From a virus, in the IMG/VR virus record IMGVR_UViG_3300044716_000883, positions 96,001-160,000 of that record: 64,000 nt of DNA; one strand, 5' to 3'. This document shows positions 49,106 to 61,090 of this stretch, in pieces. A program made the translations under genes and the position numbers. The notes beneath the pieces are model-generated. The model was not told the DNA's origin. It ran no database searches and was given only the letters and a program-made list of their open reading frames with translations. Within the stretch, counting starts at the first letter, position 1. Every line of letters starts with the position of its first letter.

Positions 49106-50278
49106 ATGAAAGTAGGTTTTATTGGCGTTGGCAAATTAGGCAAAGACGCCGCTGAAGTTATGCATGAAGCAGGTCATGATGTTTTAGGGTATGATGTAAG
49201 GATAGTGCATGACACAAAGATTAGAATGACAACATCATTAAAAAATGTTTGTGAGTATGGTGATATTATTTTTATCGCGGTTCCAACCCCACACCACCCA
49301 GATTATGATGGTAGCCAACCAACATCACATTTAGAGCCAAAAGATTTTAACTATAATATTGTTAAAAACATATTAGAAGAAATTAATCAATACACAACTA
49401 AAGAACAATTAGTAGTGTTAATATCAACAGTTCTACCAGGTACTACAAGACGTGAGTTTATTCCATTAGTAAAAAATTATAGGTTTATTTATAATCCTTA
49501 TTTAATTGCTATGGGTACTGTAAAATATGATATGGTTAATCCTGAGATGGTAATAATAGGAACTGAAGACGGTACTGAAACAGGGGATGCTAAATTGTTA
49601 ACTGAATTTTATAAATCATTTGTATATAATAATATAAGATATGAAATTGGTACTTGGGACGATGCTGAAGCAATTAAAATATTCTATAACACATTTATCT
49701 CAGCCAAATTATCATTAGTTAATATGATAATGGATGTAGCTGAAATAAATGGTAATATGAATACAGATGTTGTGACAGGTGCTTTAGAAAGAAGTACAAA
49801 ACGAATTATGGGTTCTTCTTATATGAAAGCTGGTATGGGAGATGGAGGTGGGTGTCATCCTCGAGATAATATTGCTTTAAGATACATGGCTGAAAAATAT
49901 AAGTTAGGATATGATTTATTTGATTCTATTATGAAATCTAGAGAAGTTCAAGCTGAAAACATAGCTAAACGCTTAATAGAATTACACGATGTATATGAAC
50001 TACCAATTGTTATTCTAGGCGAAAGCTACAAACCAGGAGTTCCATATATAGATGGTTCTTACACTAAATTAATTGGTTATTATTTAGAAAATAAATTAGA
50101 ATATAAAGGATTACAATATGATAAAACTGATAATCAGGCTGTGTATTTATTAGGACATAGGGGTGTACATAACACTACCGATTTCCCTAAGGGTAGCATT
50201 ATTTTAGATCCTTGGAGAGAAAGACTTAAAAAAGATACAATCTATTACGGAAATAAAATAACAAGATGGATATACTAG
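49106..50278 (+). CDS. ugd: UDP-glucose/GDP-mannose dehydrogenase family protein
   Basis: GFIGVGKLG, FIAVPTP, STVLPGTT, AEAIKIFYNTF, GGGCHPRD catalytic Cys. Confidence 0.85.
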   Translation: MKVGFIGVGKLGKDAAEVMHEAGHDVLGYDVRIVHDTKIRMTTSLKNVCEYGDIIFIAVPTPHHPDYDGSQPTSHLEPKDFNYNIVKNILEEINQYTTKEQLVVLISTVLPGTTRREFIPLVKNYRFIYNPYLIAMGTVKYDMVNPEMVIIGTEDGTETGDAKLLTEFYKSFVYNNIRYEIGTWDDAEAIKIFYNTFISAKLSLVNMIMDVAEINGNMNTDVVTGALERSTKRIMGSSYMKAGMGDGGGCHPRDNIALRYMAEKYKLGYDLFDSIMKSREVQAENIAKRLIELHDVYELPIVILGESYKPGVPYIDGSYTKLIGYYLENKLEYKGLQYDKTDNQAVYLLGHRGVHNTTDFPKGSIILDPWRERLKKDTIYYGNKITRWIY

Positions 50279-51929: not shown

Positions 51930-52349
51930 ATGATAACAGTATTATTTGGACAACCACACTCAGGTAAAACAACATTAGCTGATAAACTAGAAGCGGATTA
52001 TTATATAGATGGAGACCATCTAAGAACTATGTTTCAAAACAAAGATTATAGTAGGCAAGGTAGAATTAATAACTTAAATAGAGCTAGTGATATTGCTACT
52101 TATTTACATTATAACGGTGAAAACGTAGTTTTATCTTTAGTTTATCCATACCAAGAAACAAGAAATTACTTAAATGGCTTGGTACCTGGGGTTAAATGGA
52201 TTTATTTAACATATGAAATAGATAGAGGTAGAGAACAATTCCACGTAGCTGATTTTGAACACCCAGCTGATGATGAAGCTCTATACTTAAATACAGAATG
52301 GATAAGCGAAGAAGATTGTATCAAACAAATTAAAGAATATGTGGGATAA
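51930..52349 (+). CDS. cysC: adenylylsulfate (APS) kinase-like protein
   Basis: FGQPHSGKTT P-loop, IDGDHLR, YSRQGRINN, VVLSLVYP. Confidence 0.8.
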   Translation: MITVLFGQPHSGKTTLADKLEADYYIDGDHLRTMFQNKDYSRQGRINNLNRASDIATYLHYNGENVVLSLVYPYQETRNYLNGLVPGVKWIYLTYEIDRGREQFHVADFEHPADDEALYLNTEWISEEDCIKQIKEYVG

Positions 52350-53587: not shown

Positions 53588-55051
53588 ATGAGAGCAGTTA
53601 TAGTCGGACTAGATTTTATATATGACTCAGTTGGCAATTTACTACCAATAGAAATGAACACAAACATTGGTTATGCCAACCAAAAAGTTGAAAAGGATTC
53701 AGATGTTTTTGATATGACTGAGTTTCAAAACTTTGTAACCACAAATGGGTTTTTAAAAGTAACATATATAGGTAAAAATACTCAAATTAAAGAACAAATT
53801 GAAAAGGTTACTACTCAACTTTCTTTAGAATTTGAGTCAATGTTGGTCTCAACATCTGCTATTACTATACCATATGTTGAAGATAGTCCAACACATTTAA
53901 TTGTAAGAACAGCTTTTGACACGACTGCAATTTTAGATGATCTTTATTGTGGAAATAAGATTAATTATTTAAACCTAATAAAAGACTCCGAATTTGGACT
54001 AGAGTTTGCATATCTTAATGAAGATGGAGAGTTAGTTAACCACATCACAAATATATTAGATAATGGAATCCACCCAAACTTCATATTAAAGGCTGTAAAA
54101 CCAGCATATGACAAAAAAATATACCCAAAATTTTATAGAGTTTCAAATCAAACAGAATTAGATATTGTATTACAAAACGTAACCTCTGATTATTTTTTAA
54201 TGCCATTCTACTTTAATGAAACAAAACTACATTCAGAAAAAATAACTAAAATAAGAAAAATTAGTATGTTTTTTCCTCCTAACTTGGAGTCTATCCATAT
54301 AGGAGCATATACTGATTTAGCAATACAAAAATTAAATAGCAATGTTGTTTTTGATCCAGATACATTTGAAATAGATAACATAAATAGGTTGGCATACTTT
54401 ACAAGAGATTTCAGGATAGAGGGTTTACCGAAATTAATGGATGATGATTATGTAATAATGGCTGATGATACAATGAAGAGCGGATTGGATTTGCAAGTTG
54501 GTGATTTAGTTAAAACAATAGATATACCCAACCCAGAAAATGCTGATGCTAAGAATATAATGGTTAATTATCAAATTGATATGGAAACCTTTTTAAGTGG
54601 TGTTACATATAGTACAAATAAAGTAACAAGCAAAAGAAGAATTGATATTGTAGTTGAAGTTATGGAAATAAATTTTAGTGATGGTACAAATTGGTTCGAT
54701 ACAGTAAACTCAAGTTATTTAGTTTACGAAAATAATGAAATTAAATTTAAAAAAATAATGGATTTTGTTGAAGGAGACATTGTGTTATTAGTTGATACAT
54801 CTGATAGCCAGAATGTACAAATACAACAAAAAATAGTACAAAGCACAACCTTAAAAGAAAAAGAATTTTCAGGTTGGACAATTTCAGTTGAGAGAGAACA
54901 TCTATTTTTAACAGTTACAACACCAAACACTACTAATGTATCTTTTGCTAATACATTTTTTGCTGCGGTGGAACATAATTATTATTCCTGTATTTATGAC
55001 ACTACATGTGGTAAAGGTTACTTTTGTCTCCGAGGCAGATGTACAACATAA
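53588..55051 (+). CDS. circularly permuted ATP-grasp-like ligase + Hint domain + 23-aa Cys-rich C-terminal peptide
   Basis: N-terminal DFIYD..GNL.PIEMNTN and ILKAVKP; Hint VIMADD...LQVGDLV, FSDG, VEREHLF, VEHN; tail YYSCIYDTTCGKGYFCLRGRCTT. Confidence 0.7.
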   Translation: MRAVIVGLDFIYDSVGNLLPIEMNTNIGYANQKVEKDSDVFDMTEFQNFVTTNGFLKVTYIGKNTQIKEQIEKVTTQLSLEFESMLVSTSAITIPYVEDSPTHLIVRTAFDTTAILDDLYCGNKINYLNLIKDSEFGLEFAYLNEDGELVNHITNILDNGIHPNFILKAVKPAYDKKIYPKFYRVSNQTELDIVLQNVTSDYFLMPFYFNETKLHSEKITKIRKISMFFPPNLESIHIGAYTDLAIQKLNSNVVFDPDTFEIDNINRLAYFTRDFRIEGLPKLMDDDYVIMADDTMKSGLDLQVGDLVKTIDIPNPENADAKNIMVNYQIDMETFLSGVTYSTNKVTSKRRIDIVVEVMEINFSDGTNWFDTVNSSYLVYENNEIKFKKIMDFVEGDIVLLVDTSDSQNVQIQQKIVQSTTLKEKEFSGWTISVEREHLFLTVTTPNTTNVSFANTFFAAVEHNYYSCIYDTTCGKGYFCLRGRCTT

Positions 55052-58385: not shown

Positions 58386-60554
58386 ATGGGCGAAAAAATT
58401 TTATCTCCTGGCGTATTCCAAAATGAATCTGACCAATCGTTAGTTCAAAGAGGTATCCAAGGTACAGCAACTGCTATCGTTGGTCCAACCGTGTTGGGTC
58501 AACCATTAGTTCCTACCTATGTTACTTCATACACTGAATTCCAACAAAAATTCGGAGAAACATTTAAGAGTGGTAGTTACTACTACGAATATTTTACATC
58601 ATTAGCTGCTAGAGATTTCTTTAGCAACGGTGGTCAAACATTATTAGTTACTAGAGTTATTAGTGGTAGCAATAATGTAAATACTTATGCACAAGCAGAT
58701 GTACCAAACTCTTTAACAGCAACTGCTGGTACTGTATCTTCTGCTTCATTTGTATTAAATTCATTTGATACCGGTAGTACTCCATATATGGCACTTGGTA
58801 TTCCTAATGAAAATACTTATCTTATAAATGTAAACCAAAATACATCCTGGCTGCCAGCAGGATCAACATATGCTGATACAGTTTCAGAAATACTTCATGT
58901 TTTTGTTGGGGCAAGCCCAACCATTGATCAGGTAGGTAACTATATTACAGCCTCTCTTAATGCAAGTGCTAGTCTCTTTAGAAATAAGTTTACAGCATCT
59001 TTTGATACTGCTACTGATACTTTAACTTTTACCACAGTTGTTACAGCTAACCAAAATAGTGTTCCTAACAACAATTGGTTTGTAAGCCGTTCATTGTATG
59101 GCCCTAGTATTACACTTAAAAGCCCTAATAGTACTGGACAGTTTTTTGATAATGGTGCTGATGGTACTGTAAATAATACATTTACTCTTGAAACTATAGC
59201 TTGGGGTAACCAAATGAACAATACATCAAGTATATCAGCTGGTGCTCTAGCAAGTGGTAGTGCAGCTAACGTTCGTTGGGAAGTTACAAATGTAAACACA
59301 GGAAGCGGTACATTTAACTTAGCAATTCGTGCAGGTAATGATAATACTGCTCAACCTAACTATCTAGAAACATATACTAACTTATCATTAGATCCAGCTT
59401 TACCTAACTATATCTCTCGTGTAATTGGTGACAATAAGCCAGTTTACAAAGTGGATGGTGATGGTGTTCCATTTATTGATTACACTGGTTCTTATGCTAA
59501 TGCTTCTCCATATGTTCGTGTTAAGTCTGTAGATTACCCACAAATTGATTCAATTGATAATAATGGTAATTATAAGTCTGCTTCTTTAGCATCTAGCTTA
59601 CCACTATTAGGTAGTGGTTCAAAGGGTGGTTCATTTGCTGGTGGTGTTGCTGCAACAAACGCACCTCAATTAATGAACGAAGCAATTACATCTACAAACG
59701 TACAAGGATTCTTTTCTAATGATTACATCAATGCATTCAATTTATTAACAAATAAAGATGAATACCAATTTAATGTATTATTAGCACCAGGTATTACTTT
59801 AGATAATAGTGCTGCTGCTTACATGATCGCTACTTGTGAAGGTAGAGGTGATGCTATTGCAATGGTAGATTGTAAAACATATGGTTCAACTGTAACAGGT
59901 GCTACACAAGCAGCTGCTGGTCAATCTAGCAACTACGCTGCTGCTTATTGGCCTTGGGTTCAATTACGCTCAACTGGATTAGGCAAAGCAGTATGGGCCC
60001 CAGCTTCAACTATAATGGGTGGTGTTTTAGCATTCAACGACCAAGTTGGTGCTGAATGGTTCGCTCCAGCAGGTTTAAACAGAGGTGGTGTTAATGCATT
60101 AAAAGCTGAAAGAAAATTATCTCAAGCAGATCGTGATGCCTTATATGAAGGTAATGTTAACCCATTAGCTACATTCCCTGGAAATGGTGTTGTAGTATTT
60201 GGTCAAAAGACATTACAGAAGAAAGCTACAGCTTTAGATAGAGTAAACGTTCGTCGTTTATTGATTAGATTAAAAGATTTCATCGGTGATGTTGCAAACA
60301 ACTTAGTATTCGAACAAAATACAACAATAACTCGTAATAGATTCTTATCTCAAGTAAACCCTTATTTAGATTCAGTAGTACAACAACAAGGTTTATATGC
60401 TTACCAAGTGGTGATGGATGATTCAAACAACACACCTGATGTAATCGATAGAAACCAATTAGTAGGTCAGATTTATATCCAACCAACTAAGACAGCTGAA
60501 TTTATCATATTAAATTTCAACGTATTACCAACTGGCGCTACATTCCCTGCATAA
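58386..60554 (+). CDS. gp18: tail sheath protein (T4 gp18-like)
   Basis: SPGVFQNESD, AIVGPT, YWPWV, WFAPAGLNRG, VFGQKTLQ, DRVNVRRLLI, IYIQPTKTAEFI. Confidence 0.95.
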   Translation: MGEKILSPGVFQNESDQSLVQRGIQGTATAIVGPTVLGQPLVPTYVTSYTEFQQKFGETFKSGSYYYEYFTSLAARDFFSNGGQTLLVTRVISGSNNVNTYAQADVPNSLTATAGTVSSASFVLNSFDTGSTPYMALGIPNENTYLINVNQNTSWLPAGSTYADTVSEILHVFVGASPTIDQVGNYITASLNASASLFRNKFTASFDTATDTLTFTTVVTANQNSVPNNNWFVSRSLYGPSITLKSPNSTGQFFDNGADGTVNNTFTLETIAWGNQMNNTSSISAGALASGSAANVRWEVTNVNTGSGTFNLAIRAGNDNTAQPNYLETYTNLSLDPALPNYISRVIGDNKPVYKVDGDGVPFIDYTGSYANASPYVRVKSVDYPQIDSIDNNGNYKSASLASSLPLLGSGSKGGSFAGGVAATNAPQLMNEAITSTNVQGFFSNDYINAFNLLTNKDEYQFNVLLAPGITLDNSAAAYMIATCEGRGDAIAMVDCKTYGSTVTGATQAAAGQSSNYAAAYWPWVQLRSTGLGKAVWAPASTIMGGVLAFNDQVGAEWFAPAGLNRGGVNALKAERKLSQADRDALYEGNVNPLATFPGNGVVVFGQKTLQKKATALDRVNVRRLLIRLKDFIGDVANNLVFEQNTTITRNRFLSQVNPYLDSVVQQQGLYAYQVVMDDSNNTPDVIDRNQLVGQIYIQPTKTAEFIILNFNVLPTGATFPA

Positions 60555-60604: not shown

Positions 60605-61090
60605 ATGGCTGTATTATCACCAAACGAAATAATGTTCACAGCGTTTGAACCTAAAGTTCAGAATCGTTTTATCATGTACATCGATGGTATTCCTGCGTAC
60701 TTGATTAAAAAGGCATCTGCTCCTGGATTTGAAGCTGGTGAAATTATTTTAGATCATATCAACGTTTACCGTAAAGTTAAAGGTAAAGTTCGTTGGAATG
60801 ACATGACTTTAGAATTATATGATCCTGTAACTCCATCAGGTGCACAATCAGTAATGGAATGGGCTCGTTTAGCACACGAATCAGTAACAGGCCGCGATGG
60901 TTACTCAGATTTCTACAAAAAGAGCATCACATTAGACATCTTAGGTCCAGTAGGTGATGTAGTAGGTGAGTGGATTATCAACGGTGCTTACGTTAAAACT
61001 GCAACTTTCGGTGAATACGATTGGAGCGCAGACGCAGCAGTTAGCTTATCAGTAGTGATAGCTATGGATTATTGCGTATTGAACTTCTAA
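60605..61090 (+). CDS. gp19: tail tube protein (T4 gp19-like)
   Basis: FEPKVQNRF, WNDMTLELYDP, FYKKSITLDILGP, EWIINGAY; follows the sheath. Confidence 0.92.
   Translation: MAVLSPNEIMFTAFEPKVQNRFIMYIDGIPAYLIKKASAPGFEAGEIILDHINVYRKVKGKVRWNDMTLELYDPVTPSGAQSVMEWARLAHESVTGRDGYSDFYKKSITLDILGPVGDVVGEWIINGAYVKTATFGEYDWSADAAVSLSVVIAMDYCVLNF

Follow-up and report, generated by a model that had tools for sequence, protein, structure and literature searches.

What use would a phage have for a single polypeptide that joins an ATP-grasp ligase, an intein-like Hint domain and a short cysteine-rich tail? Such a polypeptide is encoded on the plus strand at positions 53588-55051 of the window, by which we mean the whole 64,000-nucleotide stretch analysed here (positions 96,001 to 160,000 of IMG/VR virus record IMGVR_UViG_3300044716_000883). 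The record is complete, with a length of 179,381 bp and direct terminal repeats. The gene is an uninterrupted open reading frame (ORF) of 487 residues. The upstream gene stops 4 nt before its Met1, which is invariant in the family, and AlphaFold2 modelled the full-length protein with a predicted local distance difference test score (pLDDT) of 92.1 and a predicted template modelling score (pTM) of 0.86. A description made from the letters alone, called here the sequence-only reading, had proposed a fusion of a circularly permuted ATP-grasp ligase with a Hint domain that cuts only at its C-terminal end and releases a 23-residue peptide on which the ligase acts. The reading frame and every residue named in it (D9, E22, N24, K168, K282, T372 to S375, H438, H463-N464, Y465 and the tail cysteines) were found in place. 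That interpretation is partly supported, as the domain calls hold, and use by the ligase of its own released peptide is speculative. With moderate confidence we favour a self-processing protein of three parts, an active ligase, a C-cleaving Hint domain and a released disulfide peptide, in which the ligase may act on the peptide or on members of a module of neighbouring genes.

Residue conservation was counted over 110 aligned homologs, down to about 20% identity, and tail statistics were taken over 150 full-length homologs. In the VIA comparison, residues 277-469 matched more than 50 intein, bacterial intein-like (BIL) and hedgehog structures at Z scores of 12-15.2. The best match was Tetrahymena BIL2 (6y75; Z 15.2, root-mean-square deviation (rmsd) 2.4 over 143 residues). 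Foldseek returned inteins, hedgehog and BIL domains at probability 1.0, and a profile of the 110 homologs matched the M. jannaschii KlbA intein (2jmz; E 6.6e-9) and several other inteins. These matches confirm the Hint fold that had been proposed for residues ~282-464. In the structural alignments, K282 consistently falls opposite the first intein residue and N464 opposite the final intein Asn.

The catalytic positions were then read off this alignment. Position 1 is K282 here and Lys (54/110), His (21), Leu (13), Ile (6) or Ser (5) in the family; a nucleophile is almost never found. The block B T-x-x-H motif reads T372-V-N-S375, with Ser in 81/110 homologs and His not among the top residues. 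F:4 is T431 instead of Asp and is variable in the family. The +1 residue, Y465 here, varies across the 150 homologs (Y, A, V, S, N, T, F, L and others) and is Cys in 7. Because position 1 is Lys, block B carries Ser, F:4 lacks Asp and the +1 position lacks a nucleophile, splicing and N-terminal cleavage are predicted to be lost; every residue that they require is gone. At the C-terminal end, H463 (G:6) is kept in 108/110 homologs and N464 (G:7) in 109/110, which makes the terminal His-Asn the best-conserved positions of the domain while those around them drift. F:13 is H438, within VEREHLF, and is His in 64/110 homologs and Asp in 29/110. These three residues, His F:13, His G:6 and Asn G:7, are the ones by which inteins carry out Asn cyclisation; off-pathway cutting at the C-terminal end, in which the earlier splicing steps are skipped, is also on record (PMC4031507). 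The phage Hint domain is probably able to cut only at its own C-terminal end. Conservation and comparative architecture suggest that Asn464 cyclises and cuts the N464-Y465 bond, and freeing of the tail by this step, taken alone, is likely.

Relatives with additional domains behind the tail bear on this step. A short tail and nothing more is found in 194 of 241 full-length-like homologs, and larger cargo, BACON repeats included, in 26. None of the ~240 full-length homologs stops at His-Asn, an arrangement that the sequence-only reading had said would speak against release of a tail. In nine homologs a Cys peptide of 2-35 residues leads straight into another Hint domain, of canonical type. Cys is the first residue of this second Hint (CF.G[DT]...), its blocks F and G are normal, and its His-Asn end is followed by 2-13 non-nucleophilic residues. 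The second Hint scores above the Pfam cut-off (Intein_splicing, PT-HINT or Hint). With a gathering cut-off of 27.7 bits for PT-HINT (PF07591), the second Hints of P0229 and P0237 reach 43.5 and 49 bits. For the first Hint, the window protein has no Pfam match to PT-HINT and homolog P0174 reaches 21.3 bits; PF07591 is present in 81-95% of the members of related Atlas viral clusters. At least four further homologs (P0190, P0062, P0185, P0200) have a Cys segment that is followed by Peptidase_S74, a self-cleaving intramolecular chaperone of tail fibres (in P0190 with 25.3 bits, the cut-off being 22), which hints at trimeric, fibre-like cargo. Peptide excision is supported because self-cutting modules bracket the peptide on both sides in these variants. 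A second self-cutting module is hard to explain unless the peptide is excised, and is the strongest indirect support for the predicted release at N464.

The double-Hint order is that of the engineered IMPACT-TWIN and SICLOPPS cassettes, in which the upstream Hint frees an N-terminus and the downstream Cys1 Hint leads to a thioester. By analogy, the peptide C-terminus of the double-Hint forms would pass through a thioester. In contrast to the cassettes, the phage proteins are natural, the first residue of their peptide is not Cys (Cys is often second), and the window protein is without a second Hint.

The tail of the window protein, YYSCIYDTTCGKGYFCLRGRCTT, would be released as a peptide of 2675 Da. 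It contains C468, C474, C480 and C485 together with a conserved Lys476, and its spacing is C-x2-D-x2-C-x2-G-x2-C-x2-G-x-C, exactly as had been described. Tails after His-Asn are 14-60 residues long (median 33), and Cys makes up 18.6% of their residues as against 0.4% of the body. The number of Cys is even in 143/150 tails: 75 have six, 48 have eight, 19 have four and one has ten, with five in 6 tails and none in a single tail. The frameworks are C-C-C-C-C-C in 46 tails, an eight-Cys pattern in 29, C-C-CC-C-C in 24 and C-C-C-C in 19. A C-x-K motif is kept in 110/150 tails, and many finish in CxxC-like pairs. Since six is the commonest Cys count, paired disulfides fit better than zinc sites. With its four Cys (C-C-C-C), the window tail falls outside the knottin pattern of six Cys in C-C-CC-C-C. 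Pfam searches with ten isolated tails gave Dickkopf_N as the best match (E 0.0085; 16.8 bits, below the cut-off of 25), the rest being noise.

Between the cysteines the tails change rapidly. Non-Cys identity is 14-23% in tails whose bodies are 47-73% identical. In near-identical gene pairs (L038/L039, L052/L054, L052/L063) there are 0-1 mismatches per 60 nt in the body and 10-16 in the tail, with synonymous and non-synonymous differences both raised. The changes fall in the inter-Cys loops, whereas the Cys codons and a P/G-K motif are preserved, and the tail frame and Cys pattern are retained in all of ~240 homologs. The expectation that homologous tails would be hypervariable yet Cys-patterned was thus borne out. 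Within the 90% cluster of the window protein (P0001, with P0002 and P0284), one allele has gone from four to six Cys at once in bodies that are >92% identical. The joint gain is consistent with a disulfide acquired as a pair. Overall the tail resembles toxin or receptor-binding loops and appears to be an old, exchangeable or strongly diversifying cassette. Because it evolves like such loops, the peptide probably makes contact with a target that itself changes fast, in a host or a competitor.

Sharp nucleotide divergence confined to the tail might also arise from a diversity-generating retroelement, or from a tail that is non-coding read-through. We give this explanation practically no weight. 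A retroelement origin is refuted by the lack of a reverse transcriptase (RVT_1) in the complete genome and of a template-repeat copy of the tail, and the substitutions are of all types, not adenine-specific, with the Cys codons and the P/G-K motif spared. Read-through is at odds with a frame and a Cys pattern kept throughout the family. The protein bears a likeness to conotoxin and knottin precursors, which also combine a conserved body with a hypervariable mature region that keeps its Cys scaffold and few other residues. The window tail differs from these in having four Cys and not six, no sequence family match and no signal peptide.

We also considered that no cleavage takes place. The Hint domain would then be a degenerate spacer, the Cys tail a permanent knob held by disulfides or zinc, and His-Asn would be kept for folding. 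This would account for the loss of all N-terminal catalytic residues, for the CxxC-like tail ends and for inter-domain packing that is confidently modelled (pTM 0.86). Furthermore, loss of the block B His (B:10) or of Asp F:4 lowers C-terminal cleavage in some inteins, and some couple the C-terminal cut closely to the steps that precede it (PMC4031507). However, a mere spacer leaves the conservation pattern odd, since no feature of the domain is better conserved than His-Asn (108 and 109 of 110) and neighbouring positions drift. Tails most often have six Cys, a number that four does not divide, and a Cys1-Hint or Peptidase_S74 module after the peptide is sensible only if the peptide is excised. 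We therefore regard the uncleaved form as unlikely and retain release of the tail as the preferred reading.

Is the N-terminal part a working ligase? Modelled alone, residues 1-281 reached a pLDDT of 95.2. Foldseek matched them to yeast glutathione synthetase (GS; 1m0w) at E 1e-6 and probability 1.0, with further matches to human, plant and nematode GS, YjfC/YgiC and GspS. An all-against-representatives VIA search gave YgiC as the best match (Z 9.0, rmsd 4.0 over 198 residues), together with GspS (Z 8.5), a GS-like effector (8.2), 3k1t (8.0), T. brucei GS (7.9), 3n6x (7.2), the E-64 pathway ligase Cp1B (7.1; PMC12568646) and trypanothione synthetase (7.0). Nearly all of the top 30 were ATP-grasp enzymes. 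Permuted enzymes (7uka, 2io7, 5oeu, 3k1t, 3n6x, 1m0t) cover model residues 1-275, whereas non-permuted ATP-grasps (TTLL, LysX/ArgX, RimK, Ddl, PurK, bacterial GshB) cover only 55-276 at Z 5-6. Because the former align over 1-275 and the latter only from ~55, the domain is circularly permuted, in agreement with the original assignment. Its metal-binding strands start with the invariant Met1, ahead of all other parts of the fold.

The residues E22, N24, R107, D117, P163, K168 and R223 are present in 110/110 homologs and D9 in 108/110. D9, E22 and N24 fit the acidic-acidic-Asn metal triad of ATP-grasp enzymes, K168 is by its position the putative phosphate-binding Lys, and the E-x-N strand gave a weak profile match to the E-x-N region of biotin carboxylase. 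Since the metal and ATP residues are intact across the homologs, the ligase is probably an active enzyme. Pfam GSH_synth, GSP_synth and CP_ATPgrasp gave no match in the fusion protein even at E<=10, and the domain behaves as a new sequence family inside the permuted structural group. It shares with eukaryotic GS, GspS and E. coli YgiC/YjfC the permuted strand order and the N-terminal D...E-x-N metal strands. However, it is only 9-13% identical to them, lacks their additional lid and substrate domains at a length of ~280 residues, and continues into a Hint domain.

The fusion gene lies between a glycan/sugar island on one side and tail genes on the other (Table 1).

Table 1. Positions of the features discussed. 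Coordinates are those of the window unless a locus is named.
Feature	Position	Strand	Remarks
UDP-glucose dehydrogenase gene	49106-50278		upstream island
Adenosine 5'-phosphosulfate (APS)-kinase-like gene	51930-52349		upstream island
Zinc-ribbon-like protein, 95 residues	53296-53583	+	six invariant Cys; tag ...KQTLI; most constant neighbour
Three-part fusion gene	53588-55051	+	487 residues, 55.8 kDa; ATP-grasp / Hint / Cys-peptide
Circularly permuted ATP-grasp ligase domain, residues 1-281	53588-54430	+	Foldseek, VIA, conservation
D9 codon	53612-14	+	conserved ligase residue
E22 codon	53651-53	+	conserved ligase residue
N24 codon	53657-59	+	conserved ligase residue
K168 codon	54089-91	+	conserved ligase residue, within ILKAVKP
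Hint domain without splicing residues, residues 282-464	54431-54979	+	VIA, profile, column counts
H463-N464	54974-54979	+	predicted Asn-cyclisation site, scissile bond N464-Y465; conservation
Tail, residues 465-487	54980-55048	+	predicted released peptide
Micro-ORF, 25 residues	55099-55176	+	directly downstream of fusion gene; ends ...IGNLIVQANS
Sulfotransferase-like protein, 243 residues	55203-55934	+	tag ...KRNSLI; family in 64/81 loci
2-oxoglutarate (2OG)-Fe(II) oxygenase, 165 residues	55931-56428	+	tag ...TNKLI; Pfam PF13640 E 5e-8; 70/81 loci
Protein without family assignment, 205 residues	56428-57045	+	tag ...KTISLL
Second zinc-ribbon copy, 77 residues	57803-58036	+	without C-terminal linker and tag; just before sheath gene
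Tail sheath gene	58386-60554		downstream of fusion gene
Tail tube gene	60605-61090		downstream of fusion gene
Double-Hint relatives: proteins P0184, P0217, P0229, P0237, P0249, P0173, P0213, P0260, P0268, and the locus at right	L085:7001-8968		
Long forms, 997-1667 residues	L082:150-5153, L084:9001-12699, L083:9001-11994		ATP-grasp-Hint head with BACON-repeat or unknown cargo

To describe the neighbourhood, ORFs from 80 related IMG/VR loci were clustered and family presence was counted over 81 loci. The zinc-ribbon family (~94 residues) occurs in 69/81 loci, usually adjoining the fusion gene (+1), and is retained beside the long forms too. Its assignment stems from weak zinc-ribbon matches and from an alignment with six invariant Cys. 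Complex prediction for the fusion and zinc-ribbon proteins gave no answer (score 0.02) and counts neither way. A micro-ORF of 25-30 residues follows the fusion gene in ~50/54 distinct related loci and has the consensus end ...IG(N/S)LI(V/I)xxNS. With a ratio of non-synonymous to synonymous polymorphism (pN/pS) of 0.24 over 233 pairs, it is evidently under purifying selection. The sulfotransferase-like protein of the window matches heparan-sulfate 2-O-sulfotransferase weakly (E 0.16). In related loci the downstream genes encode sulfotransferase-like proteins, several 2OG-Fe(II) oxygenases, radical SAM, B12-radical SAM and SGNH-like proteins, and others. The module accompanies the fusion gene even at 24-31% identity, including a double-Hint relative at ~30%.

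Many of these proteins share a C-terminal tag. At least 12 unrelated families, the zinc-ribbon protein included, end in [K/N]-[T/S/N/K]-[L/I/F]-[I/L]-COOH. Over 59 non-redundant loci, the strict tag was found in 247/479 downstream and 40/384 upstream ORFs (Fisher p 5e-40, uncorrected for kinship), and on 74% of ORFs at position +1. In the whole genome that holds the window, 5/234 ORFs are tagged, and two of them flank the fusion gene. A role of the tag as a DNA-level start signal for the next gene was considered, since many tags abut the next ATG, and is judged less likely. Its codons vary (Ser is encoded by TCA and AGT, Leu by four codons), 80/411 tags have no ATG within 20 nt, and the tag is missing from equally compact upstream genes. 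For these three reasons a protein-level motif is favoured. The tag might serve for docking, as a signal for cargo or as the substrate end of a ligase. As a lead only, the LysW/LysX amino-group carrier system also sets a small zinc-ribbon protein, whose C-terminal motif is conserved, beside an ATP-grasp ligase. The phage tag, in contrast, is hydrophobic (K-T-L-I) and not acidic, and is common to a dozen unrelated enzymes.

How might release and ligation be coupled? In the three-part explanation that we favour, the cut would release the 23-residue tail with a new alpha-amino group, and the remaining 53-kDa ligase-Hint body would end in a succinimide. The tail Cys would pair as disulfides once outside the reducing cytoplasm, and the released peptide would act as a fast-evolving variable binding module. 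More speculatively, the ligase would make an amide bond involving the peptide, at the newly exposed N-terminus, at Lys476 or at the C-terminal carboxylate. Alternatively it might join a member of the module, such as the micro-ORF peptide, the zinc-ribbon protein or the tagged enzymes. Enzymes of the GS, GspS and YgiC type activate the C-terminal carboxylate of a short peptide and then add an amine. Because these structural relatives do so, the candidate acyl donors are C-terminal carboxylates, namely those of the peptide itself, the micro-ORF peptide and the shared tags. The candidate amines are the new N-terminus and Lys476.

One specific form of this coupling, which we judge to be rather unlikely, is an ATP-driven peptide ligation in which the Hint domain frees the alpha-amine and the fused ATP-grasp domain joins a C-terminal carboxylate to it by a peptide bond. 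The carboxylate could be that of a K-T/S-L-I-COOH tag, of the micro-ORF product (...ANS-COOH) or of the peptide itself. Use of its own C-terminus would give a head-to-tail cyclic disulfide peptide. Such a reaction would amount to 'extein transfer' or cyclisation paid for by ATP and not by a thioester, whereas the double-Hint relatives would proceed via a thioester.

Several observations weigh against the three-part explanation. Both cleavage at N464 and ligase activity are inferred. His B:10 and Asp F:4 are both missing from the phage Hint domain, and F:13 is Asp, not His, in the 29 homologs noted above. The window tail has only four Cys, is without a match to a Cys-rich family above threshold, and is modelled at a pLDDT of 55-70. 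The phage cytoplasm is reducing, and a DsbA-type oxidase was not found in the phage genome. The gene order shared by related phages may reflect descent and not function. Double-Hint forms keep the ATP-grasp domain even though a thioester would activate the peptide C-terminus, so the ligase may have another substrate. Finally, some double-Hint relatives have only 2-8 residues between the Hints, and other relatives have 700-1200 residues of BACON cargo after His-Asn. The module is therefore not built around a small Cys peptide alone. For the same reason, the 'RiPP-like product or peptide tag' (RiPP, ribosomally synthesized and post-translationally modified peptide) proposed in the sequence-only reading is one of several readings, because BACON cargo of this size shows that the module is not specific to small peptides.

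We next asked how far the family extends. A near-length protein search gave 424 homologs at E<=1e-3, ~480-515 residues long and all labelled 'hypothetical', and a 50%-identity representative library contained 245. The three-part layout persists to ~20% identity, and the pattern as a whole far exceeds chance expectation. No homolog of either the fusion protein or the zinc-ribbon protein was found by tblastn in 50,697 cultured-phage records, and a pattern scan of 185,579 species genomes (one per prokaryotic species) found no relative of the fusion. The Atlas neighbour clusters are 96-100% viral. By these searches the family, with hundreds of members, is found only in phages, all of them uncultured and aquatic. 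PHROGs gave no match to the whole fusion protein and Pfam gave sub-threshold matches only. The closest relative of the sheath protein is that of Flavobacterium phage vB_FspM_immuto (51.6% identity); the source is an uncultured 179-kb myovirus with a sheath nearest those of Flavobacterium phages. A 211-kb genome (IMGVR_UViG_3300042892_005961) has two fusion paralogs, L015 and L063, with unrelated tails of eight and six Cys.

In PT-HINT toxins and A-type BIL domains, too, the Hint domain is preceded by a constant N-terminal part and followed by a hypervariable module, the fold serves autoproteolytic release instead of splicing, and the domain ends in His-Asn. A BIL domain, 6y75, is also the best structural match. 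This raises the possibility that the protein is a polymorphic-toxin-like effector, whose variable peptide, aimed at the host or at competitors, is set free by the Hint domain, the ATP-grasp being an unrelated enzymatic or trafficking head. The mirrored layout, PF07591 in the related viral clusters, the above-threshold second Hints of P0229 and P0237, the arms-race-like evolution of the tails and the presence of two paralogs with different tails in one phage would all fit. Nevertheless we consider this quite improbable. Neither an immunity gene nor a link to a secretion system is evident, the family is found only in phages, and the known cargo domains (BACON, S74) are adhesin-like and not toxins. 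The invariant catalytic residues of the ATP-grasp and its constant fusion to the Hint domain argue for a coupled role. The phage Hint differs further from PT-HINT and BIL domains in having Lys, not Cys/Ser, at position 1 and in the loss of the block B His. Compared with PT-HINT systems, its partner is an ATP-grasp ligase and not a trafficking domain, and its cargo is a 23-residue Cys peptide and not a toxin domain.

As far as checked, the parts of this protein are of known kinds and their combination and the module are new. No description of an ATP-grasp-Hint fusion, of such phage Cys-peptide precursors or of the tag was found in the full-text literature searched, whose coverage does not include the amidoligase paper of Iyer et al. 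2009. Borosin/omphalotin RiPP fusions of the OphMA type similarly combine a large conserved enzyme with a short variable C-terminal peptide and have tailoring enzymes alongside. Conversely, the phage enzyme is an ATP-grasp and not a methyltransferase, and release would be by a built-in Hint domain and not by a separate protease. If the favoured explanation is true, phages own a compact route to small disulfide-rich peptides, in which the precursor carries a protease-free release device and an ATP-dependent ligase. The layout may be a new way to make, release or attach small peptides. The tag on a dozen unrelated tailoring-type enzymes suggests an undescribed docking or substrate code, and the double-Hint relatives would be natural counterparts of twin-intein cassettes for peptide excision or cyclisation. 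These proteins could open to experiment the question of whether nature pairs Hint domains with ligases to build or attach peptides, and could supply new tools for protein engineering.

The upstream island contains UDP-glucose dehydrogenase, carbamoyltransferase, APS-kinase-like, cytidylyltransferase-like and DUF2061 genes. Its position could point to a different substrate, and we asked whether the ligase amidates a sugar carboxylate, for example that of glucuronic acid made through the adjacent UDP-glucose dehydrogenase. The amine would be a small molecule or, within the same reading, the N-terminus of the Hint-released cargo, so that a binding module would become joined to a glycan of the virion. 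Short and long forms both lie between glycosyltransferase and sugar-nucleotide genes and the tail sheath gene (GT7/LamG glycosyltransferase genes in the case of the long forms). ATP-grasp amidoligases occur in surface-polysaccharide loci, amino-acid decoration being their predicted task there (PMC13419641), and the cargo is BACON repeats in the long forms and S74-type fibre modules in others. Such a role is nonetheless doubtful. Sub-clades differ in their upstream genes and have the downstream tagged module in common, the enzymes structurally nearest to the ligase are peptide-carboxylate ligases (GS, GspS, YgiC) and not TupA-like sugar amidoligases, and no glycan acceptor is known.

Around the fusion gene, promoter-like sites were rarer than in shuffled sequences, and a terminator scan gave one terminator-like site, upstream, inside the DUF2061 gene; neither yielded a usable signal. 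An APS-kinase-like gene is found upstream in the window, and one or two sulfotransferase-like families with a PRSGST-type 3'-phosphoadenosine 5'-phosphosulfate (PAPS) loop are found downstream, in the window and in related loci. The tails are rich in Tyr, and sulfation of tyrosine in the peptide, or of a glycan, is conceivable.

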